Counted from the stretch's first letter, positions 16,724 to 40,173 are shown. The stretch: 64,000 nt of DNA from an uncultured Poribacteria bacterium (GCA_958296135.2 CATQHZ020000001.1:2752001-2816000), one strand, 5' to 3'. Made by a program: numbers and translations. The notes: a model not told the origin generated them from the letters alone.

Positions 16724-17602
16724 ATGGCAACTTTTGACAGTGCCTCAAAAAGACTGGTACAAAAGAACCCACGCGACTTCGTGGCATTTGCCTTCAGCCG
16801 GCGGAACATCGGTGCCGATGAGTTCAGCGACATCAAACTCATCACGCCGGAACTCCCCACGGTGGACATGCACCAAGCGGATGTCCTTATCAAGGTAAAC
16901 CTCCGCGGCAAAGATGTCTTGGTGCATTTTGAGATTCAAACCACGGACAGTTTCGCTCTGCCGATGCCCCTACGGATGGCCGGCTATATTATCCGGCTCG
17001 TCGAAACCTATCGCATGGACGTTTACTCGCATGTGATTTATCTGCGTCCGAACGCAGGACGGAATGACCCGGGGTGTTTTGTGCAGGACATTGTGGGCCA
17101 ACAGATTTTGGTGGAATACCAAGTTATCCGTCTGGCAGCCTTGGATGGCCAGGCAGTTCTCGATGCGAAACATCCCGGCTTGCTCCCGTTCACACCGTTG
17201 ATGCAACCGCCGGCGGATGTAAATGAGGCGGAATGGCTGCGTCGGTGCATTCAAACCGTTGACAGCTTGGAGATGCCGAACAAGTTGGACACGCTGGGTA
17301 TCTTAGCAGTGTTAGGCAGCGCGATTTATGACAACGAGACGATTTTAGATACGATTCGGAGGGTAACGATGAACGAAGCACCGATTGTCCAATACTTGGG
17401 GGCACAAGCCGCCAACGAGCGAGCGCGTGAACACATCCTGAAATTGCTGGCAGCCCGCTTGCAGCCGGCGGCGGCGCGCACCTTTAAGCCCGCGTTGGAG
17501 GCAATTGAAGACTCGCAACGGCTTGAGGCGTTGTTTGACACCGCGATACGGATTGATTCTGTTGAAGAGTTCCATCAGGCCCTGGACGCAAGCGGAAACT
17601 AA
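16724..17602 (+). CDS. Rpn family recombination-promoting nuclease / putative transposase (PD-(D/E)XK fold)
   Basis: FD.ASK.L...P.DF, ADVL...HFEIQT...MPLRMAGY, LLPFTPLM. Confidence 0.85.
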   Translation: MATFDSASKRLVQKNPRDFVAFAFSRRNIGADEFSDIKLITPELPTVDMHQADVLIKVNLRGKDVLVHFEIQTTDSFALPMPLRMAGYIIRLVETYRMDVYSHVIYLRPNAGRNDPGCFVQDIVGQQILVEYQVIRLAALDGQAVLDAKHPGLLPFTPLMQPPADVNEAEWLRRCIQTVDSLEMPNKLDTLGILAVLGSAIYDNETILDTIRRVTMNEAPIVQYLGAQAANERAREHILKLLAARLQPAAARTFKPALEAIEDSQRLEALFDTAIRIDSVEEFHQALDASGN

Positions 17603-17771
17603 CGTCGAATCGCCGTGGTGAAACACTCTGCGCGTTCAATACGTGGGCGCGCAGGGTGCCCCCGCCACAGCGCGCGTGAACACATCCTGAAGTTGCTTGC
17701 AGCCGGAAGCAGCGCGCTACTAAGTCCACATTGAACACGATACTCGGTTTGAAGCAGATTGGAGTTTTAAC

Positions 17772-21842: not shown

Positions 21843-23804
21843 TCAACGGTAAAACGAATAAACCGAAACACCCCAAATCAGCCGGACCAGCACCCAAGCA
21901 CCCCCGACGATAAATTGCCCGAGAATCAGCCCCAAAAAGAGCGGTAACACCCGATGATACAGACGGATGCCGCCAAATCGTAAGATGATGCTCTTAATCG
22001 CCCAACTTATCAGCACGGAAAACCAAAGCCAGCCAAACGTCCAGATACTGCTCGCAACGGCATAGCCGGTGGGATGAAAGGGGAACATCGGGAAACGGGT
22101 GCGCAGCCACCACAGCAAACCGGTGAACAGAAAGCCTGCACCCATGAAAATAACCGCAGGGATGTTCGTTTCGGTTGGGTAATAGAGCCATGAGCGGAGC
22201 ATGTTGTAACCGCCGCTACCCAAACCCGGATTCGCGCCGATGTTATAGGAGACAACCAGATACGCCCAGAACGAGGCAAGGATACCAAAAAAGATGGCGC
22301 ACATCATCGCCACTACCATGCGCCCAGCGCGCATGTTCGCTACCTCAACGAGTTTGAATCCCTCCAGCGTATGGGGCATCGGATGCGCGCGATACCCACG
22401 ATTAAAGGCGAAATAGAGCGACATCATCGTCAGACTCGGCGGCGGAATCGGACGCGAACCGAGCGCGTCGATGATGAACTGCCGCGGATTTGCGACAAAC
22501 ATCTCGTGTGTCGGTGGGCCGACTTCAGCGCGCACGCGCGTAATGCCTAACGCAAGCAGGTAATAGATGGCGAAATAGAGGGCTATCATCCAGACTGCCA
22601 TGCCGCCTTGATTCGAGAAAATGAAGAGAAAAAGCACACCACCGATTAACCCTGCCACCGGCCAGCGGTAATCGGTTGAATCTTGCATTTCTTCAGAAGA
22701 ACCGGTAGACGCGCGCCGGAAGCGCGCAAAAGAACCTATCAGGCCTTTGAAAACGGCATAAAAGTGCTTACGCCCGCCGTAAAGCCCAAAACAAGCGATG
22801 GCGAGATACGCGCCGACTCCCTGAGGGCCGTCATAAGGGAACCCCGGCAAAACTTGTAGGCCCATCGCCCTGCCGAGGATGCGCTCGCCTTTCCAGAAAA
22901 GGTAAAAAAACCACAGAGAAAACGACATCTCCAGCGGCATCAAGAACGCAAGCCCCACCCCGAATGAGAGGATATAGACGGGTGTCCACCCCATCGCATC
23001 CCACGGCTTTTCGGTGAAATAGATGCCCAAGTCTGCTTTACGCACCGGGATTTCGGGAAACGTCGGAAAGAAGGCGTGGATACCGTTAATCAGATCGATG
23101 CTTCCCGCAATCGCGAACCCCAGCCACAACATTTTGTTTTTGAAGAGCCGCCCATCCGAGTGTGTCATCTCTACTGGCAAGCGGACAATCGGATACGTCA
23201 ACCGCTCCCGTTCAATCCACTGCTTGCGGAGAAGTAAATCGATGCAAATCATCACCCACATCAGCACGGACAGAAAGACAGTCCACCATAAAATCGGTTC
23301 CCACCACGCGGAGAGATACCTTCCCGTGTAAAAGGTGGTATCGCCATCGTAAAAATCTTGCAAAACGGAGAGTTCGCTGAGCGTCATCCAATTCGGTAGG
23401 TATCGCCAGAAGAGTTGCTGCCATTCGTTTTCAGGCGTGGCAAACCAGAAGCCGTTCGGGATAACGGGAACGACGGTTTGCATCATGTCATGCCCCGCGA
23501 TAGCTGAGGAGATGGACAAGATGACATAGATTGTGAGCAGCTCACCCTGCCGGAGGGCAAACCGCGGCAGCAGCCATTTGAACAGGAAATTGAGGCATGT
23601 CAACACCGTCAGCGTCACTACCACGTTGTAAATCAGCGACATCGTGGTGGGCAAAGTGCTCCAGTAACGGAGGTGGTTTGCCATGATAAAATAGGTGTTC
23701 GGCAGAATCAGGAGAACCCCAAGCAGAATCGCGCGAAAGGTGACACCGGGATGCCTATTTTGAGAGTGTGGATGTTGCACGTGGAGTTCTGTGTTGTTTT
23801 GCAT
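21843..23804 (-). CDS. DUF6785/DUF6784-like polytopic membrane protein (putative transporter)
   Basis: T.RAILLG, ELLTIY, ATPENEW, RKQWIE.E.L.YP, HP.GY, FGG...Y....P.FLG. Confidence 0.8.
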   Translation of the reverse strand: MQNNTELHVQHPHSQNRHPGVTFRAILLGVLLILPNTYFIMANHLRYWSTLPTTMSLIYNVVVTLTVLTCLNFLFKWLLPRFALRQGELLTIYVILSISSAIAGHDMMQTVVPVIPNGFWFATPENEWQQLFWRYLPNWMTLSELSVLQDFYDGDTTFYTGRYLSAWWEPILWWTVFLSVLMWVMICIDLLLRKQWIERERLTYPIVRLPVEMTHSDGRLFKNKMLWLGFAIAGSIDLINGIHAFFPTFPEIPVRKADLGIYFTEKPWDAMGWTPVYILSFGVGLAFLMPLEMSFSLWFFYLFWKGERILGRAMGLQVLPGFPYDGPQGVGAYLAIACFGLYGGRKHFYAVFKGLIGSFARFRRASTGSSEEMQDSTDYRWPVAGLIGGVLFLFIFSNQGGMAVWMIALYFAIYYLLALGITRVRAEVGPPTHEMFVANPRQFIIDALGSRPIPPPSLTMMSLYFAFNRGYRAHPMPHTLEGFKLVEVANMRAGRMVVAMMCAIFFGILASFWAYLVVSYNIGANPGLGSGGYNMLRSWLYYPTETNIPAVIFMGAGFLFTGLLWWLRTRFPMFPFHPTGYAVASSIWTFGWLWFSVLISWAIKSIILRFGGIRLYHRVLPLFLGLILGQFIVGGAWVLVRLIWGVSVYSFYR

Positions 23805-24207: not shown

Positions 24208-25212
24208 GTGAAGAAAACTTTTCGAGAAAGATTAACCTCTGACGAACCGATGCTCTACGACGGCGGGTTTGGCACGCAGCTGTTCGCTCGCGGCATAGAA
24301 CTCGCCAATAGCGCGCTTGCCAACGAATTGCATCCCAACGCTGTTGCAGATATTCACGCCGTGTATATTCGCGCGGGCGCAGAGGCTATCGGAACAAACA
24401 CCTTTGTCGTTTCTCCCTTGCATCTGCAAATGGCGGGACAGGAAAAATCGGACGCACGAAGACTCACACGGCTCGCCGCTCAGCACGCAAAGATGGCGGT
24501 TGAACAAATGGAATCCTCTCAGGTATATATCGCCGGTTCAATCGGGCCGTCGCCCGGTGCCATTGAAGCAGACAGCGGCGATACAACCTTCGGCATCGCA
24601 AACGCCGAGGTAAGGGAAGCGCATAAACTCGTTATCCACACCCTTGCAGAAGAAGGCGTAGATTTTCTCTGCCTTGAGACGATGTTTTCCGCCAAAGAAG
24701 CCGCCATCGCTGTCGATATTGCGCGTGAGACAGGACTGCCGATTGCTGTCAATCTGACATACAAATGGACAAAAAATCGGCGCACCGGCGACATTATCTA
24801 CCGAACCGACTGGGGACATTCTCCGAAGGACCTGCTCCAGATTCTCGGAGACGACTCGCTGTTAAATGCTGTTGACATCATCGGAATTAACTGCGGGGCC
24901 GAAACACGGCGCGCCGAACATACCGGCATGCCGTATGCGATTACCGGCACGCAGCAACTCCGCGCGGCACTCGCCGAAATGCACATCCGGGACAAACGGG
25001 TGATGGCATACCCAAACGCCGGGATGCCGCAACTTGACAAAAATATGAAAACTGTCTACGCGCAAACGCCAGAGGAAATGGCGAGTCACATCCCAACGCT
25101 GATTGAAACAGGGGCATATCTTATCGGAGGGTGTTGTGGCACAACGCCAGCGCATATCAAAGCGTTCCGTAAACGGATAGCGAAAAATGGAAACGGTAAC
25201 ACTCAAATATAA
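24208..25212 (+). CDS. homocysteine S-methyltransferase family protein
   Basis: DGGFGTQL, TNTF, AGSIGP, LETM, GINCG, YPNAG, GGCCGTTP.HI. Confidence 0.9.
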   Translation: MKKTFRERLTSDEPMLYDGGFGTQLFARGIELANSALANELHPNAVADIHAVYIRAGAEAIGTNTFVVSPLHLQMAGQEKSDARRLTRLAAQHAKMAVEQMESSQVYIAGSIGPSPGAIEADSGDTTFGIANAEVREAHKLVIHTLAEEGVDFLCLETMFSAKEAAIAVDIARETGLPIAVNLTYKWTKNRRTGDIIYRTDWGHSPKDLLQILGDDSLLNAVDIIGINCGAETRRAEHTGMPYAITGTQQLRAALAEMHIRDKRVMAYPNAGMPQLDKNMKTVYAQTPEEMASHIPTLIETGAYLIGGCCGTTPAHIKAFRKRIAKNGNGNTQI

Positions 25213-25687
25213 AAGACTGCCAGACCGGGTTTCACACTTCCAGCAGCGGCTGCACTATGAAGATGAGAACATCATCGTCACATCGCAACGAGTTAAGCCA
25301 TCCTCGCCTATTGTACATAACGGTGAAACGGTGCTGGGAGAGAACTTCACCGCTGTCTGGTTCGTGTTTACGGGGCAGTGGTACGACATCGGGAAAATCT
25401 ACAACCTCAATAACGAGTGGACCGGCTATTATTGCGATATTATTGTGCCGGTGATACGGACAAAAAGCCGTTTTGAAATAACCGACCTGTTCTTGGATCT
25501 CTGGGTATATCCCGATGGCAGTTATGAGATTCAGGATGAGGACGAGTTTGAGGCGGCAATTCAGGCCGGCGCGATTGACACCGACTTGGCCCGAAAAGCG
25601 CGCAAGGCACTTAACGCCTTAATCGCGGAAGTTGAATCAGGAGAATTCCCGCCGCAAATCGTGAGAACCGAAAACGGAATTGTGTGA
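25187..25687 (+). CDS. DUF402 domain protein
   Basis: GYYCDI...DLFLDLWV.PDG...QDEDEF. Confidence 0.85.
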   Translation: METVTLKYKRLPDRVSHFQQRLHYEDENIIVTSQRVKPSSPIVHNGETVLGENFTAVWFVFTGQWYDIGKIYNLNNEWTGYYCDIIVPVIRTKSRFEITDLFLDLWVYPDGSYEIQDEDEFEAAIQAGAIDTDLARKARKALNALIAEVESGEFPPQIVRTENGIV

Positions 25688-26008
25688 AACGCGTGTCAAT
25701 CTATTTGCAATTCTGGGTACCTGTTGCTTGAGCCGTCTCGTTGATGAACTCACACAAAACCGGATTCTTCGGGAAGCCGAAGGGGTAAGCAACTTGAAGA
25801 ACTCGGGTTCAAACATGAGGACGCGTTGCACATCGCATGTGCCGAAAGCGGCAACGCGGCCATCTTATTGACAACCGATGACAAGTTCCTCAGCAGGGCG
25901 CAACACCATGCTGATAAACTTCGCGTCCGAGTTGAAAACCCTTATACATGGTTACAGGAGAACCCTGGCAATGAACATCTTCAAGATGACCGAGCTGGAA
26001 ATTTATGA
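25684..26008 (+). pseudogene. degenerate PIN-domain toxin
   Basis: Fragments in different frames: TCCLSRLVDELTQNRILREAE and LGFKHEDALHIACAE...LLTTDDKFL...VENP..WL; the middle is deleted. Confidence 0.7.
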
Positions 26009-26435
26009 AGTCGGCATCGAAATTCTGAGGGAGAAACTTGGCCCTGCCATCGATCGGTTTCTCCCACAGTGCAAACCGGGCAAAGGCAACTGGTCCGTTG
26101 ACCGGCACAAATGGATAAATAAAGAGCGGGATGTAGAGACACTCGCTCGACGCATCCAACAAGAGCGCGAGAAGAGGCGCGCGCAGGAACAAGAAGAGGC
26201 ACGTTTGAGACAGCACTGCGCTGCCGCAAGTCACGCCGAAATCCTAAAAATGACAGATTTGGAAATTTACAAAACTGGCATTGAAGTGCTTGGTGAAAGA
26301 CTTGGCCCTGCCGGGATGTCCCGGTTTCATAGGTACTGCGCACAGCGCAACGGCACAAAAGACGAGCGACGCAGCGAGACGGCCGCCAGTTATAAACCAC
26401 AGCCGCCCTTGCAGGAAACGCATCCTTCCCAATAG
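25971..26435 (+). CDS. putative antitoxin with an internal duplication
   Basis: Two copies of MT(E/D)LEIY..GIE.L.E.LGPA...RF; overlaps the PIN remnant. Confidence 0.65.
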   Translation: MNIFKMTELEIYEVGIEILREKLGPAIDRFLPQCKPGKGNWSVDRHKWINKERDVETLARRIQQEREKRRAQEQEEARLRQHCAAASHAEILKMTDLEIYKTGIEVLGERLGPAGMSRFHRYCAQRNGTKDERRSETAASYKPQPPLQETHPSQ

Positions 26436-26543
26436 GCGCGAACACTTAGATAGCATAACTGACTGTAGGGCGAGGGTCTACAGTCACTGGCAGTCACTGG
26501 GTGGATTATTGGGAAAACGCAAGGACTCCGAAAAAATAAGATA

Positions 26544-26573
26544 TTGATATTTATTTACAATTAATGGTATAAT
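26544..26573 (+). promoter_or_regulatory. sigma70 promoter of the beta-CASP/GrpE/Hsp70 cassette
   Basis: TTGATA-18bp-TATAAT with extended TG, AT-rich context. Confidence 0.65.
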
Positions 26574-26632
26574 AAATGCAACAAAACCCCGTTGTCTCAA
26601 TCAAAATCGGGTAAACCTTTAACAAACAACTT

Positions 26633-28024
26633 TTGAGCGGAGGCAGAGTTACGAAGAACCTCTTTTTTCCAATCGGCGGCGGAAATGAAATCGGCGCGAG
26701 CTGCTACTTTATCCAGTTAAACGGTGCAAAACTCCTCTTGGATTCGGGCATTCGGTTGCATTCCGATTCTACTTTTCCGCGCTTCGATTCGCTTTATGCA
26801 CAAAACTACCTCGATGGCTTGTGGGAGCTGGAGGGAATACTGCTCTCTCACGGACACCTAGACCATGTCGGTTCACTTCCGAATGTCGTCACCGAAGCAC
26901 CGGATGTGCCCATCTACGCGACTCAGGCGACACATGACATTATGGAGATGCAACTGAGCCAAGCCGTAGATGGGGACTCTGTCCCGGATGCAACTTGGCA
27001 GGACTTTCGAGAAGTGCAGCAGTTCAACGCGACCCGGGTGGAACGCGCATTAGAAAACGTTCGGTTCGTTGAATGGGATGAACCTTTTCTCCTAGAGTAC
27101 CAGGGAAGCGTGCGATATCCTCCCGTGCAAGTCACGTTCTATCCTGCCGGGCACATCCTCGGTGCTAGCATGATTTACGTCCAATCCGACGCGGGAAACA
27201 TTTTGTTTAGCGGCGACTTTACGCCGTTCGACCAGATGACTGTCCCAAAGTATCAGATTCCGGACAATTTGGACGTGGATTTACTCATTGCTGAATCGAC
27301 ATACGGGTATCAGGAGGGAACTTACGCGGGAAATGTCGGTGAAGAACGCGAAATCTTCGCGCAAAAAATCGAGCGATGCTTGAACAATAAAGGCAGTGTG
27401 CTCATTCCTGCATTTGCAATCGGAAGGAGCCAGGAACTTGCCCTGATTTTGCAGAACCTCATCCACTCCAAACGGTTGATGCCGTTCACGATTTACATTG
27501 ACGGGCTCGCACAAACGGCTTGTGAGATTTATCAAAATAACGGCGTACGCGTCTTCGGATATCAGGTAGGTAAAGCACCCCGCGGGCTTATCGAAAACCT
27601 TGACATCTTTAACGGCGTGCTCATCGCTAGTTCTGGGATGTTACTCGATAAGAGTGCCTCAGCACGCTACGCTGAAAAACTGCTACCCGACTCAAGGAAC
27701 GCTATTTTCTTTAGCGGCTACCTTGATGAAGAGAGCCCAGGGCGACGGCTAGAACGATTGTATCGGAGCAAAGGCGAACAGTTTCGACTCAATGACAGAA
27801 GTGTGCCTGTCCACGCAAATGTTGATACATACCGGCTCTCTGCACACACCGACAGCGAGGGGATTCTCTCGCTCATTGAAAAAGTTTATCCTAAGAAAGT
27901 CGTTTTCGTTCACGGGTACCCGCAACAGCGGACCGTGGTTAACGTCTATAGTGAAACCTTCCGGCGGTTCGGAAGAGATATAGAGGTCTATCAAGCCACC
28001 AACGGCACGCCTATCTATTTCTAA
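26633..28024 (+). CDS. metallo-beta-lactamase fold beta-CASP nuclease (CPSF-73/RNase J superfamily)
   Basis: EIGASC, LDSG, SHGHLDH, AGHILG, SGDF, ESTYG, PAFAIGRSQE, SSGML, SAH, VHG. Confidence 0.92.
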   Translation: MSGGRVTKNLFFPIGGGNEIGASCYFIQLNGAKLLLDSGIRLHSDSTFPRFDSLYAQNYLDGLWELEGILLSHGHLDHVGSLPNVVTEAPDVPIYATQATHDIMEMQLSQAVDGDSVPDATWQDFREVQQFNATRVERALENVRFVEWDEPFLLEYQGSVRYPPVQVTFYPAGHILGASMIYVQSDAGNILFSGDFTPFDQMTVPKYQIPDNLDVDLLIAESTYGYQEGTYAGNVGEEREIFAQKIERCLNNKGSVLIPAFAIGRSQELALILQNLIHSKRLMPFTIYIDGLAQTACEIYQNNGVRVFGYQVGKAPRGLIENLDIFNGVLIASSGMLLDKSASARYAEKLLPDSRNAIFFSGYLDEESPGRRLERLYRSKGEQFRLNDRSVPVHANVDTYRLSAHTDSEGILSLIEKVYPKKVVFVHGYPQQRTVVNVYSETFRRFGRDIEVYQATNGTPIYF

Positions 28025-28110
28025 CGAACCATCGGAATAAAAAATCGGGTATGAGGCATCCGGCCTCAAACCATTGATAGCATCGGTAAGGATGCAAAAC
28101 TTTGCATCGA

Positions 28111-28200
28111 GAACGTAGTCATCGACAACGGCGATGACAGCCCTGGTAAAATCACGTCATTGCACCAGGAACCTCAAACGCGTTCCGAAATACGAAAGAG
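28111..28200 (+). repeat. ~100-bp dispersed repeat with GTCATCGAC-AAC-GTCGATGAC core, copy A
   Basis: AACGTAGTCATCGACAACGGCGATGACAGCCCTGGTAA. Confidence 0.75.
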
Positions 28201-28215
28201 ACAGAGGTACCATAC

Positions 28216-29451
28216 GTGGAATTGAAAATCAGCGAGCTGATAAGTAAATACCGGCATAAAGGCAGAAGTCAAGAGAAACACCTCGTTGAACGGCAGCTGA
28301 ACGCTTATCACTTGGCGCGCGCCGTCTTGCATGCACCCGAAAGCCGACCGATCGAACTCGTCACACAACTCAAAAAGGACATGGGCGTGAGTCGTCTCCC
28401 CTTTCGCGTTGTCGACGAATTAGACCGGTATCGCCTCGGGCCCAGAAAACGCGTCACCTGGGCAGAACAGATTACCGAAATCGGGCAATGCCTCTGCGAA
28501 TTCGCAACCGGCGACCCGGCAGACTGCGACCATCAGGCGTTGTATGAGCAGGCGAAACGCTACCTCGCCGCCCCATCGATAGAGGAATACACGCACCTCG
28601 CACCGCACGACGCACGGCCGATAGAACCGAAGGCGATTCTCTACGCTTTTTATGCCGAACTGCCAGAGACAGTGAGCTACAAAGCCATCCTTCACGATAC
28701 CGCTCGGCTGGCGAATTTTAAGCAGACGAAAACCCTCTTGGATGAACTCGTTGAACTCATCGCGCGAGAGAGAGGGCTCCGTCCCAAGAAGTCTGCACAC
28801 GAACGCGCCCTCGGCGGCATCGCCGAAACGCGGGGGCTCCTTGAATCTTTGACGCACCGAAGCACCGCGCCCATCACTTCTTCTCCGATGCCTGAGGACG
28901 ACATCCCCTTTGAGCTCATTGAGGATGAGAATGTCATGGCGGAAGAAGAGGCACTCCACGAAAACGCAGACCTGCGCGCCTCCGCGGAAATCGCGCGGCA
29001 GGAACTTGAAGTTGTCAAAGAAGAACTTGAGCAAGTCAGGGAAGAAGCGGGGCAGGAAGCCGCCCTCGCCTTCTTCCAAGAGATGAATTCCGGGAAACAC
29101 AGCAACTTGCTGGACCAGTTTCTCAAGGCGGAAGAGCTCGTCAAGGGTTTAAAGAAAAATGGGATAGAGATTCCGCAGGAAATTGAACTCATCCCCATTA
29201 TCATCCGCATGTTTAACCGCTTCCTCAAAACCCAAGGCATCCGCCCCCAAGCAGTTGTCGGGGAAAAGAAGGAGATTACCCTCAACGAATCTGATGAATA
29301 CGAATACATCGGTTCGGAATGGAAAGATCCGGAGGAAACGAAGACAGTGGAAGTCATCTCCGCCGGATGGCTCTACAAAGGCACGCTCACAGGCGATGAG
29401 AGTGAGCCTATCGTCATTAACAAACCGAAAGTTCAGGAGGTAACCTCATGA
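28216..29451 (+). CDS. GrpE-like nucleotide exchange factor with an extra N-terminal domain
   Basis: Coiled coil, then LLDQF...FLKTQGIRP..VVGE...TVEVISAGWLYKG...VINKPKV, which parallels the GrpE C-terminus. Confidence 0.65.
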   Translation: MELKISELISKYRHKGRSQEKHLVERQLNAYHLARAVLHAPESRPIELVTQLKKDMGVSRLPFRVVDELDRYRLGPRKRVTWAEQITEIGQCLCEFATGDPADCDHQALYEQAKRYLAAPSIEEYTHLAPHDARPIEPKAILYAFYAELPETVSYKAILHDTARLANFKQTKTLLDELVELIARERGLRPKKSAHERALGGIAETRGLLESLTHRSTAPITSSPMPEDDIPFELIEDENVMAEEEALHENADLRASAEIARQELEVVKEELEQVREEAGQEAALAFFQEMNSGKHSNLLDQFLKAEELVKGLKKNGIEIPQEIELIPIIIRMFNRFLKTQGIRPQAVVGEKKEITLNESDEYEYIGSEWKDPEETKTVEVISAGWLYKGTLTGDESEPIVINKPKVQEVTS

Positions 29452-32400
29452 AATATTGGGTCATCGCGCCAATGGAATCCACCATCCCTGAAGAATTGTT
29501 CCAGAACGCTTGGCAACACGACAAACAACATGGAACAATCGCCGTAGGCTGGCCCGTCCATACGCAGCACGGAACACCCATCTCGCCTGCAGGAGTCCCT
29601 CCTGCAGTCCGAGGGCAGGTGTCCCCTACCGACCAGCTGGCGACTCTATCTGGGTACGGAACCTTTGAAGATTTCCAAGACTACTTCAAGAATTTTAACC
29701 AAGAATGTCAACTTGACTGGGGCCCCCGGGCAGCAAAAATCGTGTGGGAATTCCATCGCGAAATTCAGATAGGGGACAAGGTCATCGCACGGCTCGGGTT
29801 AAGCAAGATTCTGGGCATCGGCACCGTTACCAAAACCGCCTACTACGATTGGCCGCAAGCGATAACTCGCCTGGGAACCTCCACCCCCATTCCCGAGGTG
29901 GACTATTCCCACGTTCGGCCGCGGTTCATCGAAGTCAACTGGGAACACACCGGAGAATTTCCAGCCAAATTGGCATGGAGACGCAGTGTTCAGGAAATCA
30001 CCAGCCAGCAATTTCACGAGGTGCTGGCTGGGTTGAACCTCGAAGCAGTTCCTATAGATTCAGAGCCCCCGAGCCGAACTGAAGCACCGGACCTCGCATC
30101 CCAAGCCTATCCGGAATCCACGCCGGAGACGGTTCAGCCGCACCCGCCTGTAACAGAGGAAGCAGAGCCAACACGAAGGGCTTCGGCACCCATTGAACAT
30201 GAAACCGGCAGAGATGGGAGTCAGCCGCAATCGGCACCTCAGCGGAGCACAACAGAGCCAGAGGATACGACAACGTCAAGGATGCAGTCACCTCCCTTTG
30301 GCCGTTCAACAGGGCTGAAGGCGATTCTACCGCACGAGGTGGACAGACAGCACAAACCTTCCGTTCGTGCCGCAATCCCTGCGCCGGATGCTCCAACCGA
30401 ACCCGCGCACCCGAACTATTACATCGGCATCGATTTAGGCACGACGAACTCTGTCATGGGATGGGGCACGCTCAATCCACAGACGAACAAGTTAGAACCC
30501 AAAGTCGTGGAAATTAACATGATGATTGAGCGGGGCGGTATGGGGAAAAAGGAGTTGTTACCGTCGTGCGTCTATTTCAAAGAAGGAAGCCCACCGATTA
30601 TCGGGGAATACGCGAAGACGATGATAGGACGGCAGACAAGCCGGGTAGTGAAATCTGTTAAGAGCGACATAGGTACACCGAAGCAGTATGAGTTCGATAA
30701 CACCACTTATAGCGCAGCGGAAATCTCATCGCAGATTCTCAAGCACCTCGTCGCCAGTGCAAAGACCTTGTTCGGATTCATGCCCGATGATGTCGTCATC
30801 ACCGTGCCTGCCTCCTTTGATTCGGATATGCGGGCAGCCACGATTGAAGCCGCGCGCCTCGCCGGATTCCGCACACACGAAGACGATGGAAGTCCACGGA
30901 ACATTTTGCTCGATGAACCGCGCGCCGCACTCTACGATTTCATCAATAGACAGGACAAAGGGGAAATCCCTGAAACGCTCATCAACTTCCACACGCCGAA
31001 ACTAGTCCTCGTCTTTGACCTAGGCGGCGGCACCTTAGATGTCTCTTTACACAGAGTCTCTTATGAGGACCACGAATTCCGTCTGAACATCGAAGATTTG
31101 GCCGTCTCGCGGTATACGCAAATCGGTGGAGATGATTTCGACCAGAAACTTGCCGACCATTTCTTCGCAGCCTACGCGAATAGGCTCCCCAATAACCTTA
31201 ATGATTTCCAGATGAATCTGATTAAGAGTGACTTCCTGGAATTCGCAGAACAAGCCAAGATTGATCTGAGCAGCGAGATTGAAACGAGCAAATTAATGCG
31301 GTATTTTGACCCGGATACAGTTGAAACGACGATTATCCAAACGCCGTGGGAAAATCTCGTGTTTCAATACGATTTGACGCTAACCGAATATGAAGACATC
31401 ATTGAGCCGCTCCTCGCGAATCAACTCACGCTGGAATCGGTCGCGCAACTTGACACACTGCCCGCCTGTGATAACATCATCTACCCTATCCTTGATGTGT
31501 TACGAAAAGGGGAACGCAAACTCGGGACGATGCCGCAGGTCGATGCCGTGCTCCTCAACGGCGGCATGACGAAACTCCACACTATCCAAAAACGGTTGGA
31601 GACGTTCTTCGGTTTCCCACCGATTACTGCTGGCGATGCCGACAAAGCTGTCGCACGCGGCGCAGTGGTGTATCACTACGACTTGCACAGAGGGATTAAA
31701 CCGGCACGCATCCTCAACGATACTATCGGCATTGAAATCGCTGGTGGTAGAGTCAAACCGCTTGTGGAAGCAGGAACGATTCTGCCGTTGTCGGCACCGC
31801 AATCGATTGAGGGACTGCAGGTAAGCGACGGCGCGCCCTCCTTGCGGCTGCCGTTTTACCTCGGCAGCCGCAAGGATACCAAACCACCGAATCGACGCAT
31901 CCTTGAACGGAACGTGCGATTTAGGCGGCCGCTCCTCAAAAATGAACCCATCTACATACAAGTGCAGGTGGACGAGCGCGGCATTATGAACGTCGAAGGG
32001 TGGCCGAGGGCGAACCCGAATGAAAGGTTCGCGGTGAGTGTCGATTCAACCAGAGCTGCAAGTGCAGCACCTGGGGTGGACAGCCCCCCCACTGCCGGGA
32101 CAAGCAACGTTCGGAACCCGATACCGAGCGCGCCTCCCTACAGTCCGGCACAGCGAGCTCCCGCGCCACGATATAGCGGCAGCGTTGGACAACAGCCCGT
32201 ATCAACCGGCCCCTCCTTCCCGGGGAGAGCGGTAGACCCGAGCCAGGGCACCACCCTCGACGTCCAGTATGAAATCGCGGAGATGAAGAAGAACTTCTCC
32301 TACTACATGCGGACATATCAAATCAACCGCAAGAAGGTGATTATGGACCAGGTCATCCGACAGCGTCACAAAATCGCCAACGCCACGAACGCCGAAGAGT

Positions 32401-33182
32401 TCATCGGCCCGCTCCTCGAAAATATCCCCTACGTGAACAACTACGGGAAGGCGAGAGTCATGGTGCTTCTCGGCGATTTGGCCAGCAAGACTTCGGATAC
32501 AGACCTGCTTTACGACATCTGCGATGCCGGCATCGCGCTGAGCAGCCCCGACGAACTTGCGCACAAGCATCCGCAGGTTATCAAAACGGTTGTTCGCTAT
32601 GCGGTGGAAGCCATCGGGAAAACCGGACTCCCCATCGCCGAATCGCACCTGATTAACCTCATTACGCGGGAAGTCCCCGTCGCCATCCGGCCCAACGCCG
32701 TTTACTCCATCGGCAAGTGCTGCCACAGCGTGAACGCAATTGAGCACTTGAAGCCGCTAGTCGAGCATGGCGTAGCAGCTGACCGGATTGCCATCAATTG
32801 GGCGTTCGGGAAAATGGGCAGTCGCGAACATAAGCAACCGCTGCCAATCGAGCAGTTGGATTCGGTTATCCAAATCCTCCTGGAGCAGTTGCGCAGCGAC
32901 GCACACAAGGATGTCAAGCGGAACGGCATTTACGCGCTCGGCGAAATTTGCGACCGGCGCGATTGCGCCAAGGATCCGATTCCTATTGAGAAAACCGCCG
33001 AGGTGATAACTGTGCTTGAACCGTATCTTATGTTCCGGACAGATGGAAGCCTCTCCGAGTTAGCGAACATACAGCAAGAGCGGCTGCTCAAGCGGTTCGC
33101 CGGCGTTTCTCTCAACATGATTAAAGGCGTGCATCTCTCTGCCGAACAGGAAACGAGCCTGCTAACTATCCGGAACGAATAA
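29448..33182 (+). CDS. multidomain Hsp70-family protein (N-terminal restriction-associated domain, Hsp70 ATPase, C-terminal HEAT-like repeats)
   Basis: GIDLGTTNS, VITVPASF, DEPRAA, DLGGGTLD, GGDDFD, LNGG, AVARGA; C-terminal repeats EAIGK / YSIGK / WAFGK / YALGE. Confidence 0.88.
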   Translation: MKYWVIAPMESTIPEELFQNAWQHDKQHGTIAVGWPVHTQHGTPISPAGVPPAVRGQVSPTDQLATLSGYGTFEDFQDYFKNFNQECQLDWGPRAAKIVWEFHREIQIGDKVIARLGLSKILGIGTVTKTAYYDWPQAITRLGTSTPIPEVDYSHVRPRFIEVNWEHTGEFPAKLAWRRSVQEITSQQFHEVLAGLNLEAVPIDSEPPSRTEAPDLASQAYPESTPETVQPHPPVTEEAEPTRRASAPIEHETGRDGSQPQSAPQRSTTEPEDTTTSRMQSPPFGRSTGLKAILPHEVDRQHKPSVRAAIPAPDAPTEPAHPNYYIGIDLGTTNSVMGWGTLNPQTNKLEPKVVEINMMIERGGMGKKELLPSCVYFKEGSPPIIGEYAKTMIGRQTSRVVKSVKSDIGTPKQYEFDNTTYSAAEISSQILKHLVASAKTLFGFMPDDVVITVPASFDSDMRAATIEAARLAGFRTHEDDGSPRNILLDEPRAALYDFINRQDKGEIPETLINFHTPKLVLVFDLGGGTLDVSLHRVSYEDHEFRLNIEDLAVSRYTQIGGDDFDQKLADHFFAAYANRLPNNLNDFQMNLIKSDFLEFAEQAKIDLSSEIETSKLMRYFDPDTVETTIIQTPWENLVFQYDLTLTEYEDIIEPLLANQLTLESVAQLDTLPACDNIIYPILDVLRKGERKLGTMPQVDAVLLNGGMTKLHTIQKRLETFFGFPPITAGDADKAVARGAVVYHYDLHRGIKPARILNDTIGIEIAGGRVKPLVEAGTILPLSAPQSIEGLQVSDGAPSLRLPFYLGSRKDTKPPNRRILERNVRFRRPLLKNEPIYIQVQVDERGIMNVEGWPRANPNERFAVSVDSTRAASAAPGVDSPPTAGTSNVRNPIPSAPPYSPAQRAPAPRYSGSVGQQPVSTGPSFPGRAVDPSQGTTLDVQYEIAEMKKNFSYYMRTYQINRKKVIMDQVIRQRHKIANATNAEEFIGPLLENIPYVNNYGKARVMVLLGDLASKTSDTDLLYDICDAGIALSSPDELAHKHPQVIKTVVRYAVEAIGKTGLPIAESHLINLITREVPVAIRPNAVYSIGKCCHSVNAIEHLKPLVEHGVAADRIAINWAFGKMGSREHKQPLPIEQLDSVIQILLEQLRSDAHKDVKRNGIYALGEICDRRDCAKDPIPIEKTAEVITVLEPYLMFRTDGSLSELANIQQERLLKRFAGVSLNMIKGVHLSAEQETSLLTIRNE

Positions 33183-33296
33183 TTTTCTTCGTTCGCAAGG
33201 CGTGCGGCGGACATCACCGATACCAGAACGTTTTCACAGTACCCAGTCGAGCAGCGTTGTCAGATGACTGAAGTGTCCCAATCAGCCCATATCCTC

Positions 33297-33654
33297 GTAG
33301 GGCGAGGGCCGTCACGGGCACGCCTACAGAAAACGTGTTTACGGTAGTCAGTCGCTCTGGCGAGGCAGCTCGCCTGTCTTGATAGACGTGACCTTTGCAT
33401 CGCTGCAGTTTTTGACGTAGGCAGTTTGCTGCGGTTGACGGCGTAGGCAAGTTTGCGAAAGCCAAACTTGCCAAATTCGTGTTATTCGGCTTTGCGAATA
33501 ACACTAGCCGTCAACCGAAGAAAGCCAAACGGTTTCCGAAGATGTGTTATTCGGAAACCTTGCGAATAACACTGCGTCAAAAACTATAAAAGCAAACTAC
33601 CTTACTTTAACGCCGTCATCTCTGCAGCCTCGCTGCAGAGATGGCCACTGTCCC
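33297..33654. repeat. cluster of palindromic elements
   Basis: GTAGGGCGAGGG REP, GGCAAGTTTG..CAAACTTGCC, two GTGTTATTCG..CGAATAACAC hairpins, CATCTCTGCAG copy 4. Confidence 0.75.
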
Positions 33655-33686
33655 CCGCTATGCTATGAATTAAGGAATACTTCAAA

Positions 33687-34892
33687 ATGGAATTCAAACT
33701 AGCAATAAACGGCGGCGAACCTGTCCGTACCAAACCCTTTCCATCATGGCCCACCCTCAATGCCGCTGACATTGAAGCGTTTGAAAGTATCTATCAGAGT
33801 GGGCAGTGGGGCGTTGGCGGCACAAAGGTGCCTGAATTTGAACGGCAATTCGCTGAATTTCAGGGAGCAAACTATGGCGTTTGCGTCAACAGTGGCACAT
33901 CTGCACTCTATATCGCGCTGAAAGCCGCGGGGGTGTGCCCTGGACACGAAGTCATTACCACAGCCTACACCTTCCAAGCCACGGTTGTCGCCATTCTGAT
34001 GACGCATGCCGTGCCGGTGTTTGTGGATACTGCACCGGATACTTTTCTGTTAGATGCTGCCAAAGTGGAGACAGCGATAACAGAAAAGACGAAGGCAATC
34101 TTGCCTGTCCACATCGCGGGGTATCCAGCGGATATGGATGCGTTGGTTGCAGTTGCACGCCGTCATAACCTCAAGGTGATTGAGGATTGCGCGCAGGCAC
34201 ACGGTGCCGAGTGGCGCGGGCGAGGTGTCGGCAGTTGGGGCGACTTCGGATGCTTCAGCTTCCAATCCTCCAAAAACCTGTGCGCCGGGGAAGGCGGCAT
34301 CATCTTGATGAACGACAAGGCGGCGTATGAACGCGCCTGGGCCCTTCACAACTGCGGCCGCACCCCTCCCGATGCCGAGTTTGGTAACATAGAGCCCTTC
34401 GGCGGCAACTTCCGCATGACAGAATGGCAGGCGGGCCTGCTCCTGGCGCGGTTGACACGGCTTGAGGAAGAGACCAACTACCGGCACATGAACATGCGGT
34501 GGTTAGATGGATGGCTTGGCGAGATTCCGGGCATCAAGGTAACCCCGCTCGATCCGCGGGCAACGCGCGGCGGATGCCACGGCTACAAGGCGATTTTCGA
34601 TTCCGAGGAGTTTGAAGGCATATCACGCGAAACGTTCCTCAACGCCATGCGCGCCGAAGGCATACCGATGGGCTATTGGTATACCACGCCGATGTATCGC
34701 GACGCTTTCTTGGCATCAAACCTTTTCGGGCAAAATTTGGACTATGCCGAAGTGCATTGCCCAGAAACGGAGAAACTGTGCCAGACAGGGCTCTCCCTCG
34801 GTCAGAACGTTTTGATGGGTAGCGAAGAGGATATGGAGGACATCATTAAGGCGACAATCAAGGTGCGGCGGAACGTTAACCAGTTAAAATGA
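33687..34892 (+). CDS. DegT/DnrJ/EryC1/StrS PLP-dependent aminotransferase
   Basis: NSGTSAL, TFQAT, PVHIAG, EDCAQAHG, FSFQSSKNL..GEGG. Confidence 0.93.
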   Translation: MEFKLAINGGEPVRTKPFPSWPTLNAADIEAFESIYQSGQWGVGGTKVPEFERQFAEFQGANYGVCVNSGTSALYIALKAAGVCPGHEVITTAYTFQATVVAILMTHAVPVFVDTAPDTFLLDAAKVETAITEKTKAILPVHIAGYPADMDALVAVARRHNLKVIEDCAQAHGAEWRGRGVGSWGDFGCFSFQSSKNLCAGEGGIILMNDKAAYERAWALHNCGRTPPDAEFGNIEPFGGNFRMTEWQAGLLLARLTRLEEETNYRHMNMRWLDGWLGEIPGIKVTPLDPRATRGGCHGYKAIFDSEEFEGISRETFLNAMRAEGIPMGYWYTTPMYRDAFLASNLFGQNLDYAEVHCPETEKLCQTGLSLGQNVLMGSEEDMEDIIKATIKVRRNVNQLK

Positions 34893-35084
34893 TGGTGTGG
34901 GCAAACCTCTCCCTGAACCGCAGCGTTGATAGAACAATTGACATCCCCGTGGGAGATAGTGGCCGCAAGCGAAGGAAAACTCGCAATGGAACTGCCATCG
35001 GAACTGGCCGGGCTTCGCGCCCTGCACTGCCCAGGTCCGAAAGGCGTTTTTTATCAAACAACCCGCCATTAAAATGAACAGTCA

Positions 35085-35922: not shown

Positions 35923-36079
35923 GGCGGCGTGTGACTGAGACACGCCCGCCCCATCGAAGGGACAGCGATCGGCTGCCCCTTCGATGCCTGTATGGCTTCA
36001 CATTCTCGCAAGACAGGGTTCATAACAAGGCTAACCCGCTGCCCTACCCACACACGAGACGATGAAGGAGCACGAAAAA

Positions 36080-37151
36080 ATGAAAACATTCATTGCGCTC
36101 GGCGTTTCCCTTTTCACACTACTGACGCTTTGCACCGGGTGTCAATTCTCATCAACAGCGGAGAACGATATTGTGAATACGATTGAGAGAGCATACAGCG
36201 TTAAACCGGGCGGCACGTTAACAGTTGTGTCGGAGTTCGGCGCGATTGACGTGCAAACCGCCGCCCGGGACAGCGTCGCGATGGTTATCACGAAAGAAGC
36301 GAAATTCAAACTCGATCCGACGGTTCAGGAGGCCCTCGCTGATTTTGAGGTGGCATTTGAACACCAAGGTCCTGATGTCCGAGTTGAAGGGACGTTCAAA
36401 CGCGGGCGGGAGCACTGGCAGAAAAAGCTGAACCGGTTGAAAATTCGATTTCAGGTGACAGTGCCTCAGCAGTCCAACGTCGATTTGGAGACTTCAAGCG
36501 GTAGCATTGCCGTTGCCGACCTGGGCGGCACAGTCCGCGCGCGCACGTCGGGCGGGAGTCTGCGCTTTGGCAACATTGAAGGCACCGTGTGGGGGACGCA
36601 CCTCGGGCGGCAGCATCAAACTCACTTCGTGTGGAGCCGCTGTCGAACTCAAAACGTCCGGCGGCAGTATCGAGGTAGGCGATGTTGCCGGCGCAGTCAA
36701 AGCACAAACCTCTGGCGGAAACCTCCGTTTTGGAGAAATTCAGGCCCCCATCTGGGGCAGAACCTCGGGCGGCAGCATCAAACTCAAGGCGTGCCAAGCG
36801 GCTGTCAATCTGCGAACCTCGGGCGGCAGTATCACGCTTGAGAGCGTTGCAGGGGATGTCGCGGCGAAGACTTCCGGTGGTTCTATCCGCGCAAATATGA
36901 CAAGGCAACCTGAGCATGACTGCAGGCTGCAGACATCAGGCGGCGGGATAACTGTCACCCTCATCCCTGATATTGCCGTTGACGTAGACGCGCAAACCAG
37001 CGGTGGAAACGTCGCAACCGAGTTTCCTGTCACATCGGTAATTCAAGGCAAGATACCTAAAAATCAGTTAAAGGGCACGATAAACGGCGGCGGACCGCGA
37101 TTAGAATTGCGAACCTCCGGCGGAAATATTCGTTTGCAAAAAGCAGAGTAG
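36080..37151 (+). pseudogene. DUF4097 beta-strand repeat lipoprotein, single +1 frameshift (or assembly error)
   Basis: Lipobox-like LCTGC, repeated TSGG.I motifs; G5 at 36591-36595 where the sister repeat implies G4 (WGRTSGG). Confidence 0.8.
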
Positions 37152-37400: not shown

Positions 37401-38234
37401 TCAGTAATTCTTGATAAACAATTCCATCCCTTTCGCAGCTGTTGCCTTCCGATAATTGTTCATCCCGTATTGCAACGTCCATTCCCGAATCTCCGCGAAA
37501 TCGAAGAGCTCCCGAATGAAAGGCGAATCGTCGTAGGTTATCAGCCATTTGTGCTGACACTTCTTCATATTCTCCGCGAACTGCCCGTGATCGAACCCCG
37601 TATGCAAACTGCCGCGCACCCCATAGAGTTTTGACGCAGTCGCTTTCCAATACGGCGGATCCAAGAAAAGAAAGACATCTTCGCCTTCTTGGAAAAGCAC
37701 GTTGGCGTAATCCCCGCACGTGATTTTGACATTGCGGAGATACGGCGCAACCTGCGCTACGCGCGCAATGGAAGATTCTGTCCACCGTTTCGCATAGGCG
37801 GAAGGCGAATACCCACCAGAATCTACCACGCCCGAAAAGGTGATGCGATTCAGGATGAAAAACCGCACGGCGCGCTCAAATTCGGAGAGCAGGGCGCGGT
37901 TTTCGCTGAGCTCATCCTTGTCCGCTGTTAATTCGGCAAACAGGGCACGGCCATCGGTTGCGTTCGCGTGCGTTGTCGTCAACGCTTCTACCAATGCGGG
38001 GTTATTATCGCGCGCCTGCCGCCAAAAACAGAAGACATCATAGTTGAGCTCATTCATCCAATACGTTTTGATGCGGCTGTCGAAGAGGCTGCGGATAGCG
38101 AAGAAGACAGAGCCGCCTCCGACGAAAGGTTCTCGGAATTCGGCGATGTTCAGCGGAATGAGCGGGAGAATCTGTTTCAAGGCGCGAGATTTCCCACCCG
38201 GATATCGTAGGGGGCTTTTGGCAAGTTTACGCAT
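37401..38234 (-). CDS. Dam-like (D12 class) N6-adenine DNA methyltransferase
   Basis: RYPGGKS, EPFVGGGSV, DPPY. Confidence 0.9.
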   Translation of the reverse strand: MRKLAKSPLRYPGGKSRALKQILPLIPLNIAEFREPFVGGGSVFFAIRSLFDSRIKTYWMNELNYDVFCFWRQARDNNPALVEALTTTHANATDGRALFAELTADKDELSENRALLSEFERAVRFFILNRITFSGVVDSGGYSPSAYAKRWTESSIARVAQVAPYLRNVKITCGDYANVLFQEGEDVFLFLDPPYWKATASKLYGVRGSLHTGFDHGQFAENMKKCQHKWLITYDDSPFIRELFDFAEIREWTLQYGMNNYRKATAAKGMELFIKNY

Positions 38235-38271: not shown

Positions 38272-40173
38272 TCACCAGTGCTTGAACGAATACATCCGCT
38301 GTTCTAAGAATAGCCCCAAGATCGCCCACAGACTGCCCATCACGAATTCACCGAGCATTGTGCCCAGAAAGAAGGGCAATGCTCGGCGATACGCGCCCAG
38401 TCCACCATGACGAATCAGGATAGACTTGATTCCCCAAGCGAGAAACACCGGAAACCAGAGTCGCCCAAAATTCCAATTGCCGGCGAGTGGATACGCGAGC
38501 GGATGCAGTTGCCACCAGATAAACCGCAGCCGCATGAAAAGGGTGCCTAAGGTGAGCGATATCCCGAAGCCGAAGAAGCCGATGTGTCGCCAATCCGTAT
38601 CGCTTGGGAAGGTGAGCCACCGCTGTAAATCGCTGAATGCTTCTTGTCCGCGCCATGTGCCTAAACTGCCGTGCCGATAACCGGCGTGCAGGAACGCCGT
38701 AAATCCGATGAGCAATCCGACGACAGTCGCACCCCACATCACCCACAAAAGTTGGCGCGCGTTGATGCCGCCCCGGTCTGCCAATTTAAAGCCTTCCAAT
38801 TGATTCGGCATGGGTTGTGAACGGTAGTTACGCGTGAAGCCGTAGAGGAAGGCGAAGCCGGTCAATGTCGGCGCGCCAATCTTTCTCGAACCGAAGAGTG
38901 ACGTGAGAAAAAAGCCGGGGCCCGCACGGTAAAAATCCTGCGTCGGCGTGCCGAGTTCTGCGCGCATCCGCGTAAATGCTAACACGAGGATAAAGTGGAC
39001 GCTAAAGAATCCCAGCACTCCCCACCATGACATCCCAGCCTTCAAGCAGAACCCAAACACAATTGCGATGCTGACGAGAAATCCGATGAACGCAGCCCGA
39101 TACCCCATCGGCTCACTCGCTGAATCCACACCACTTTTCACTCCCAAAATATTGCGTAACACCTGCCATAAATGCTTATGCGTTATCCAGAGCGCGAAGA
39201 AACAGAGCCCGAAATACGCGCCGAGTGACTGCATATCAATGTGCGGATACCCGGGCGTTTGGTTCATCCCAGTCATCGCGCCGAAGACGAGCTGCGCCTT
39301 CCAGAAAAGGTAAAACAGCCAGCACGAAAGCGACAGATCCAGCGGCATCAAAAAGCCGATACCGATAGCGTAAGGGTTGAGATGGATAGGCGTTGAACCG
39401 ATAGCACTCAGCGGTTTCTCCGTAAATAGCCTTCCGATGTCATGGCGGATGGGAATGCCCGGCACATAAGGGAAAAGAAAATTGATGCCGTTGAGTAAAT
39501 CAAGCCCGCATCCGATGGCAAAACCGAGCCAGAGGAGCCGGTCGCGGTAGAAACTGGCATCCTTCGTCATTTCATAAGGGAGCAGGATGATCGGATAACT
39601 CAGTTTTTCGTGCTCGATCCACTGTTTTCGGAGGATGACGTTGAGCATCAGCATCGAGAATGCGAGCGCGGAGAAGAAGAGCGTCCAGCATAACACCGGT
39701 GTCAGCCACGCACGGATATGTTCGGTTTCAAAAAGGTTTGAAGTGCCTTCATAGTAGCCGGTTAAGGCGCGCCGGTCCAGCACCGCAATCCAATCCGGAA
39801 TGTAGCGAAAAAAGAGCGATTGCCATTCGTTCTCCGGAGTGGCGAACCACGTTGCATGCCCCAAAACGCACATCGTCGCCTGCAGCAAGTCATGCCCACA
39901 AACGACGCAGGCCAGTGCCACCATGAGGTAAACGGTGAGCATCTCTGCCTGCGTCAACTGCCACTTCGGCAGGTATCGGGTGAGCAGGAGGTTGAACATC
40001 GCAACGAGAAAGAGGGTAAAGACAGCGTTAAAGAAAATCGCCATCGTCGTCGGATACTGCGTTGTCCACACCGTCTCTGTCTGAACGACGAGATAGATAT
40101 TCAGCGGGAGCGACAGAAGTCCTAGCAGGATAGCGCGCCATGTGATGTTTTCAGCGGCGGGAGGGGTTAGCAT
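38272..40173 (-). CDS. DUF6785/DUF6784-like polytopic membrane protein (paralog of 21843-23804)
   Basis: ITWRAILLG, ATPENEW, RKQWIEHEKLSYP, RMRAELG, LEGFKL. Confidence 0.8.
   Translation of the reverse strand: MLTPPAAENITWRAILLGLLSLPLNIYLVVQTETVWTTQYPTTMAIFFNAVFTLFLVAMFNLLLTRYLPKWQLTQAEMLTVYLMVALACVVCGHDLLQATMCVLGHATWFATPENEWQSLFFRYIPDWIAVLDRRALTGYYEGTSNLFETEHIRAWLTPVLCWTLFFSALAFSMLMLNVILRKQWIEHEKLSYPIILLPYEMTKDASFYRDRLLWLGFAIGCGLDLLNGINFLFPYVPGIPIRHDIGRLFTEKPLSAIGSTPIHLNPYAIGIGFLMPLDLSLSCWLFYLFWKAQLVFGAMTGMNQTPGYPHIDMQSLGAYFGLCFFALWITHKHLWQVLRNILGVKSGVDSASEPMGYRAAFIGFLVSIAIVFGFCLKAGMSWWGVLGFFSVHFILVLAFTRMRAELGTPTQDFYRAGPGFFLTSLFGSRKIGAPTLTGFAFLYGFTRNYRSQPMPNQLEGFKLADRGGINARQLLWVMWGATVVGLLIGFTAFLHAGYRHGSLGTWRGQEAFSDLQRWLTFPSDTDWRHIGFFGFGISLTLGTLFMRLRFIWWQLHPLAYPLAGNWNFGRLWFPVFLAWGIKSILIRHGGLGAYRRALPFFLGTMLGEFVMGSLWAILGLFLEQRMYSFKHW

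Follow-up and report, generated by a model that had tools for sequence, protein, structure and literature searches.

The locus studied here lies in a 64,000-nt stretch of the 5.19-Mb genome of an uncultured, sponge-associated Poribacteria bacterium (G000:C1:2752001-2816000), referred to below as the window; all window positions are counted from its first letter. Three same-strand open reading frames (ORFs) at 26633-33182 (+) form a candidate conflict cassette, encoding a beta-CASP nuclease (gene 1), a GrpE-like protein (gene 2) and a large Hsp70 protein with HEAT repeats (gene 3). The ORF coordinates agree with the co-oriented arrangement described in an initial annotation of this DNA. Gene 1 (26633-28024, +) starts with TTG and encodes 463 amino acids (aa), gene 2 (28216-29451, +) starts with GTG and encodes 411 aa, and gene 3 (29448-33182, +) starts with ATG and encodes 1244 aa. 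Ahead of the trio, where a promoter had been proposed, we found a strong putative site of the sigma-70 type at 26544-26573 (+), with TTGATA and TATAAT 18 nt apart, an extended -10 TG and 11 of 12 consensus matches. It is the best among nine such sites in 25600-33800 (shuffled mean 4.7, standard deviation 2.1; consensus match only).

The spacer between genes 1 and 2 (28025-28215) measures 191 nt and holds a short dispersed repeat at about 28112-28140, with intergenic copies at 35087, 40339, 42836 and 44671 (86-93% identity over 28-37 nt). In related loci the spacer is 119 nt (L001), 99 nt (L005), 100 nt (L032) or 6 nt (L034) long, and the two genes overlap in L030. Genes 2 and 3 share an ATGA overlap (ATG at 29448-29450, TGA at 29449-29451) with the box caGGAGG 8 nt upstream. 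Both elements are read directly, and through this overlap the GrpE-like gene is predicted to be translationally coupled to the Hsp70 gene, as already noted in the initial annotation.

The gene 1 product matches three Pfam families above their cut-offs: Lactamase_B (1e-12), Beta-Casp (4.8e-12) and RMMBL (3.6e-8). The motif set of beta-CASP enzymes of the metallo-beta-lactamase (MBL) fold comprises MBL motifs 1-4 (D, HxHxDH, H, D) and the beta-CASP motifs A (D/E), B (H) and C (H or V). In all nine gene 1 orthologues the residues D37, H73, H75, D77, H78, H174, D195, E221, H405 and H427 are invariant; every catalytic motif is thus conserved, which, together with the Pfam domains, confirms the description of gene 1 as a complete beta-CASP MBL nuclease. 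No second Beta-Casp match was found in the genome. Among NCBIfam models, gene 1 comes closest to aCPSF1 (187 bits, cut-off 580), Cas14 (165.8 bits, cut-off 800) and RNase J, always far below the cut-off; the low aCPSF1 and Cas14 scores led us to place the protein in a subfamily of its own. A partial similarity to the model of the ligase-associated DNA-damage exonuclease reaches 73 bits. A histidine at motif C reportedly marks RNA-acting beta-CASP enzymes. The RMMBL domain and this histidine point to RNA as the probable substrate of gene 1.

Gene 2 encodes two parts, an all-helical N-terminal domain (residues 1-225; 28216-28890, +), proposed here as an adaptor, and a C-terminal GrpE-like module (residues 233-411; 28912-29451, +) made of a long helix, a helical bundle and a beta-domain. 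The protein itself (P0002) has no match in Pfam, NCBIfam or PADLOC, and GrpE (PF01025) is not matched even at E<=10. The GrpE-like ending that had been claimed for it holds by fold and by family, below the Pfam threshold. Its AlphaFold (AF2) model has a mean confidence (pLDDT) of 88.6, with blocks mostly above 90, and consists of the helical N-domain of about 220 residues, a 59-residue helix, a helical bundle and a small beta-domain. When this model was aligned exhaustively against 48,161 chains (VIA-align), ranks 1-3 were all GrpE, with 143-149 residues aligned over 233-411 (9bls_B, Z 8.5; 1dkg_B, Z 8.1, rmsd 3.8, 143 aligned; 4ani_A, Z 7.7). Foldseek on the whole model gave no match at E<=0.001. 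A HMMER search of 1.84 billion representatives returned 263 relatives at E<=0.001, of which 117 also pass 1e-10 and 15 pass 1e-30. For the most part these cover residues ~245-392 only, and full-length alignment is seen in a minority of those listed; Pfam GrpE is matched at E<=1 by 32 of 50 scanned relatives (best 2.1e-9).

For the N-terminal domain of gene 2 the best structural match was only Stn1 (Z 6.3), and a protein atlas queried with residues 1-225 gave no usable match. The domain does not align with the corresponding protein of L039, a locus that has no nuclease. A complex prediction of gene 1 with this domain scored 0.00, which is no verdict and counts neither way.

Gene 3 was described in the initial annotation as a 1244-aa Hsp70 with intact ATPase motifs and two extra domains, and the additional domains could now be assigned. 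The central part, the Hsp70 ATPase with the substrate-binding beta-domain (residues ~321-870; 30408-32057, +), matches Pfam HSP70 at E 3.9e-43 up to profile position 485 of 599. Gene 3 is 31% identical to the DnaK of the same genome (DnaK equivalog score 144 bits, cut-off 648) and shares with it GIDLGTTNS, the K of SVKS, VITVPA, EPxAA, DLGGGTxD and GGDDFD as ATPase motifs. The helical lid is lacking: the substrate-binding beta-domain is followed by a Pro/Ser-rich linker and then by a C-terminal HEAT-repeat domain (residues ~950-1244; 32295-33182, +), for which HEAT_2 scores above its cut-off (E 9.7e-7, 29.4 bits) when the C-terminal piece is scanned alone. The HEAT domain is conserved in relatives and forms a separate gene in the plasmid versions presented below.

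The N-terminal 200 residues of gene 3 (29448-30047, +) gave three Foldseek matches in the PDB at E<=0.001, all of them EVE proteins (1wmm, E 2.9e-5; 2hd9; 2p5d). These are followed by YTH domains and by the EVE-HNH restriction enzyme VcaM4I, with probabilities of 0.9-1.0. The model of this domain is of moderate quality (pLDDT 69 overall, the core being better), and Pfam EVE reaches E 0.0069 and 16.8 bits (cut-off 23). On the modelled fold, we assign the domain as EVE/YTH-like, a PUA-like barrel. At least 28 among 120 listed gene 3 homologues carry an EVE-like domain by the precomputed label PF28530 alone. One metagenomic homologue (P0096, 1373 aa) has an additional N-terminal RAMP domain (PF03787, E 6.3e-11) before the EVE-like, Hsp70 and HEAT parts. 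Matches to gene 3 in a phage collection (26 records) are confined to the Hsp70 part, stay below 60% identity and in no case cover 80% of the protein. The protein atlas, searched with residues 320-1244 of gene 3 (P0003), listed long Hsp70 clusters, mostly from Bacillota. Rank 6 is a cluster of 1053-aa Hsp70 proteins, 60% of them with a NYN ribonuclease domain, which is commonest in Cyanobacteriota (score 0.89) and would represent another pairing of an Hsp70 with an RNase; the atlas results are leads only.

The trio is kept together in other genomes. All five genome loci whose upstream flank is long enough have genes 1, 2 and 3 side by side. Genes 2 and 3 are adjacent in all nine genome loci, and in the phylum search gene 3 again follows at each gene 2 locus whose contig extends downstream. 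One genome (G070) has three extra ORFs between genes 1 and 2, one of which encodes a PD40 beta-propeller protein. A scan of metagenome contigs yielded eight loci, four of them with a long gene 2 homologue, and in three of these four (L032, L033, L034) a beta-CASP gene precedes gene 2, down to 30% identity. At L039 (2083-12161) a GrpE-like gene (363 aa) and an Hsp70-HEAT gene (918 aa) occur without a nuclease, beside a divergent 1183-aa protein without family, and a BrxA gene lies ~5.6 kb away. The loci L035, L037 and L038, a more distant branch, combine a short GrpE with a 567-aa Hsp70. The contigs of L037 and L038 end after these two genes and only L035 holds downstream sequence; there (7128-13702) a 195-aa GrpE (Pfam GrpE, 2.8e-7) and the 567-aa Hsp70, which has no HEAT part, are accompanied by a Ser/Thr kinase, a TPR protein and a DnaJ-TPR protein.

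Outside the phylum, gene 3 finds its best plasmid matches on pNCT2_2 of Priestia megaterium and on record CP079755.1 (L040), which is labelled Klebsiella grimontii. Both records show the same gene order, namely a beta-CASP gene, a hypothetical gene (476-527 aa), an Hsp70 gene and a separate HEAT gene; both are typed mobilizable and have integrase or HNH genes nearby. The plasmid nucleases are 32-34% identical to gene 1 over the full length. An alignment that joins the family of the CP079755.1 hypothetical gene with its Priestia counterpart matches gene 2 over the GrpE-like module, with 93.4% probability (E 2.4e-7, 146 columns). In CP079755.1 the Hsp70 is annotated as two coding sequences, and the label of the record or the origin of the segment may be doubtful. 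Pfam EVE finds nothing in the two plasmid Hsp70 proteins, a model that also misses the domain of the window's own protein. In PADLOC the proteins of the plasmid versions behave like the trio, with no real match. Plasmid cassette DNA had no match in E. coli genomes.

Within the phylum, gene 2 was found in 15 of 176 genomes, all of one family (14 of 111 without the genome of the window). It is patchy inside genera, with counts that include 8 of 65 and 2 of 40. DUF402 and DegT genes, which flank the cassette in the window, are adjacent in all four examined genomes without the cassette at this site, being separated by 42-214 bp. In one of these four the cassette is located at another site, next to RmuC, ParB-like and UvrD-like genes. 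In G155 (L046, G155:C1:2797500-2812500) the cassette sits at the DUF402/DegT site, its Hsp70-HEAT gene is split into two ORFs (390 and 513 aa), and its border shows two pairs of insertion sequence (IS) transposase genes, a PIN-like gene and a duplicated 3' DUF402 fragment with its TGA. This pattern fits insertion at a hotspot and an old insertion followed by many losses alike. The low frequency and the empty sites show that the cassette does not belong to the core genes.

From these data we infer, at slightly better than even odds (about 55%), that the trio is an accessory conflict cassette built around a non-canonical Hsp70 ATPase, whose active cycle, together with a private exchange factor, is predicted to control an RNA-type nuclease. 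The targets would most likely be phages or other mobile elements; the anti-phage role and the licensing of the nuclease by the ATP cycle are predictions. The intact ATPase motifs of gene 3 and the private GrpE-like factor argue for active ATP cycling, which would distinguish the protein from CnuD of the type III CoCoNuT systems (see below). A nucleic-acid theme runs through the parts: the EVE/YTH-like fold, the RAMP fusion in P0096, and the RMMBL domain and motif C histidine of gene 1.

In the mechanism that we propose, the Hsp70-HEAT protein would act as sensor and switch and capture a foreign ligand. This could be a modified nucleic acid, bound through the EVE/YTH-like domain, or else a foreign protein, bound through the substrate-binding domain and the HEAT surface. 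The GrpE-like protein would set the rate of ADP/ATP exchange and hence the duration of the bound state, and its N-terminal helical domain may serve to hold the nuclease. On release or activation, this enzyme would then cut RNA (DNA is less likely) and thereby stop either the invader or the infected cell. Hsp70 is classically known as a machine for protein folding. More tentatively, and with less than even confidence, we suggest that here a complete Hsp70 ATP cycle has been turned from folding into an innate-immune switch that licenses a beta-CASP RNase, with a reader of modified bases in some lineages and the GrpE-like protein as timer. If true, this would be a class of chaperone-based immune sensors apart from STAND, McrBC, CRISPR and cyclic-nucleotide systems and common to distant phyla, and it would demonstrate that a chaperone cycle can serve as molecular timer or sensor in immunity. 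The tools for finding defence systems, now blind to the cassette, would gain a family of nuclease effectors. The relatives in cultivable Bacillaceae and on the Priestia megaterium plasmid make the idea directly testable.

Several observations weigh against a conflict cassette of this kind. The immediate neighbours in the window are metabolic, with homocysteine S-methyltransferase and DUF402 genes upstream and a DegT aminotransferase gene downstream; moreover, the cassette lies between the same DUF402 and DegT genes in seven genomes of five genera, which also fits an old vertical residence with many losses. P0002 matches no GrpE model, the profile of its family reaches GrpE in the PDB (4ani_A) only at E 0.96, and the GrpE Z scores of 7.7-8.5 are within the chance range of long-helix models, though three GrpE chains rank first. 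Of the 15 carriers in the phylum, five have the EVE-like domain and ten lack it, so that it cannot be the universal sensor. In PADLOC-DB 2.0 gene 3 has weak or partial matches only (PDC-S02, E 1.9e-4 over 63 residues; PDC-M61B, E 1.5e-3). On three of five examined plasmids, those from Herpetosiphon, Nostoc and Deinococcus, related beta-CASP nucleases have no Hsp70 neighbour. Finally, the named relatives of the hypothetical gene of CP079755.1 are all from Bacillales, the closest being from Bacillus with 99% identity; because of this, the Klebsiella label does not count, and the module set is shown in two phyla, not three.

The EVE/YTH-like fold, including its match to VcaM4I, raises the question of whether the cassette is a modification-dependent restriction system that resembles Type IV or CoCoNuT systems in its mode of action while lacking McrBC. 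In that case the fold would read a modified base in the DNA or RNA of the invader, Hsp70 would take over the motor or switch role of McrB, and the beta-CASP enzyme would cleave directly, without killing of the cell. This is a narrower form of the conflict cassette proposed above, and the RAMP fusion in P0096 as well as the CnuD-like Hsp70-HEAT architecture, tied to RNA targeting in the main text of PMC11090510, would suit it. We nevertheless consider it rather unlikely in this restricted form, given the ten carriers without the EVE-like domain, the plasmid Hsp70s without an EVE match (though the model, as mentioned, is blind to the window's domain too) and the lack of McrB or McrC among the 20 neighbouring ORFs that we surveyed (14-46 kb of the window).

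The resemblance of gene 1 to aCPSF1 and RNase J models, its RMMBL domain and its status as the genome's sole beta-CASP enzyme would also suit an accessory function in processing or quality control of the cell's own RNA. Here an Hsp70-type remodeller, served by an exchange factor of its own, would deliver the RNase to ribonucleoproteins, and modifications of host RNA would be read by the EVE/YTH-like domain. The stable position between the same genes in seven genomes and the metabolic neighbours agree with such a role, but a carriage by only 15 of 176 genomes with clean empty sites does not, nor do the plasmid-borne module set of the Bacillota beside integrase and HNH genes, the IS and PIN genes at the G155 border and the large distance of the aCPSF1 and RNase J scores from their cut-offs; we regard this explanation as less probable still than restriction guided by base modification. 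A role in maintenance or competition of mobile elements (an addiction cassette, plasmid exclusion, or a stress or DNA-repair module that benefits the carrier element and not host immunity) is the least probable of the three. In its favour are the location on mobilizable plasmids, the toxin-antitoxin (TA)-type remnant upstream in the window, the PIN-like gene of G155 and the partial similarity to the DNA-damage exonuclease model. Against it, the cassette has no replication, transfer or integration gene inside, its location in Poribacteria is chromosomal, its borders in the window show no integrase, and the nuclease is RNA-type by domain content.

As to the surroundings of the proposed conflict cassette, the initial annotation had placed it between TA remnants and a repeat cluster. 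Upstream and outside the cassette, an open frame fragment (25748-26005, +) resembles the C-terminal end of a VapC-type PIN domain. The Pfam match (E 0.0017) covers only profile positions 87-115 of 120 and, at 19.4 bits, stays below the cut-off of 23.6. The fragment is a possible TA remnant and gives the claim of TA remnants weak support. An ORF of 185 aa at 25878-26435, without family and conserved only in L001, has an internal tandem duplication with a unit of ~60 residues. Downstream, the repeat cluster is real: the intergenic stretch 33183-33686 contains six direct-repeat families and 14 inverted pairs of a dispersed type resembling repetitive extragenic palindromic (REP) elements. Copies of the repeats at 33296-33337 and 33615-33654 occur outside this stretch at 9214-9255, 8270-8341 and 7609-7652. 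Because the units recur elsewhere in the window, we rejected these repeats as a component of the system and regard them as dispersed intergenic material. No CRISPR-like array was seen in them, and no Rfam family was found in 25000-35000.

Further away, three co-oriented ORFs at 16724-20700 end with a gene for a 626-aa DNA methyltransferase of the Eco57I type, ~6 kb upstream of the cassette. It shows weak matches to MADS MAD2 (E 3.5e-7) and BREX PglX (3.2e-6), far below the cut-offs, and the two ORFs ahead of it are without family; the group may be a remnant of a restriction-modification or BREX-like system. About 3 kb downstream of the cassette, a D12-class (Dam-type) adenine methyltransferase gene (37401-38234, -) adjoins an ORF of 259 aa (36062-36841), possibly as a type II restriction-modification pair. 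This is a second variable spot: among five related loci, the D12 methyltransferase is found only in L001 and the 259-aa ORF only in L007. Two paralogous DUF6785/DUF6784 proteins of 653 and 633 aa, ~38% identical, bracket the region on the minus strand (21843-23804 and 38272-40173).

Compared with known systems, the trio is separate from the housekeeping dnaK operon. The same genome encodes a canonical DnaK (640-aa ORF) at C1:3276821 and a canonical GrpE (144 bits) at C1:3355841, and no J-domain or hrcA gene occurs among the 20 neighbouring ORFs, in line with what the initial annotation had stated on both points; a housekeeping dnaK operon was therefore rejected, the canonical pair sitting elsewhere. 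The Hsp70 ATPase motifs, the substrate-binding beta-domain and the GrpE fold are features in common with the housekeeping DnaK-GrpE pair. Unlike that pair, the trio has HEAT repeats in place of the lid, an added EVE-like domain, a GrpE-like protein with a 225-residue N-terminal extension that misses the Pfam model, and no DnaJ or hrcA. Gene 1 has the beta-CASP/RMMBL fold and motifs in common with Cas14 of type VII CRISPR-Cas and with archaeal aCPSF1. Type VII CRISPR-Cas itself was rejected as an identification (Cas14 165.8 bits vs 800), and there are no Cas genes or domains among the neighbours. Genes 1 and 2 match none of the families in PADLOC-DB 2.0.

The closest architectural parallel to gene 3 is CnuD of type III CoCoNuT, a group of systems derived from McrBC whose predicted target is RNA (Bell et al., eLife 2024, PMC11090510). 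According to the main text of that paper, CnuD or CnuCD combine, fused or as separate proteins, an Hsp70-like unit of nucleotide- and substrate-binding domains with subsequent HEAT-like repeats; nucleases and YTH-like or other RNA-binding domains are likewise part of these systems, and a function in immunity is predicted. The Walker A-like and ATP-binding motifs of CnuD are called degenerate there, and the protein is predicted to have poor ATPase activity and simply to bind RNA. In the main text GrpE is mentioned 0 times and beta-CASP is never named. In contrast to type III CoCoNuT, compared here through the published description of CnuD only, the trio has a beta-CASP partner, a dedicated GrpE-like gene and ATPase motifs that match those of DnaK. 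No McrB-like NxD GTPase, McrC/DUF2357 protein or HEPN/coiled-coil partner was found among the 20 neighbouring ORFs, and neither the GTPase nor McrC DUF2357 was seen in the related loci.

A second parallel is offered by the GTPase-centric conflict systems of the GAP1-N2 type (Kaur et al., eLife 2020, PMC7159879). As described there, they have their own Hsp70 and GrpE, with FNIII, DnaJ or TPR partners, and occur mainly in Actinobacteria and Firmicutes. What they share with the trio is a conflict neighbourhood with its own Hsp70 and its own GrpE exchange factor. The trio differs in having no GTPase, J-domain or FNIII, and instead a beta-CASP nuclease, HEAT repeats and an EVE-like domain. The distant loci L035, L037 and L038, in which no GTPase was seen, loosely recall the GAP1-N2 theme through their own DnaJ-TPR partner.

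In the literature searched, with subscription journals and supplements outside the search, no description of a system combining beta-CASP, GrpE-like and Hsp70-HEAT proteins was found. The statement of the initial annotation that the combination is not a named system holds to that extent, but its parts have precedent in the two papers cited above: the Hsp70-HEAT architecture in CnuD, and the Hsp70 with its GrpE in the GAP1-N2 systems. We conclude that the trio represents a further variation on the predicted conflict systems built on Hsp70, new and unnamed as far as our searches reach.

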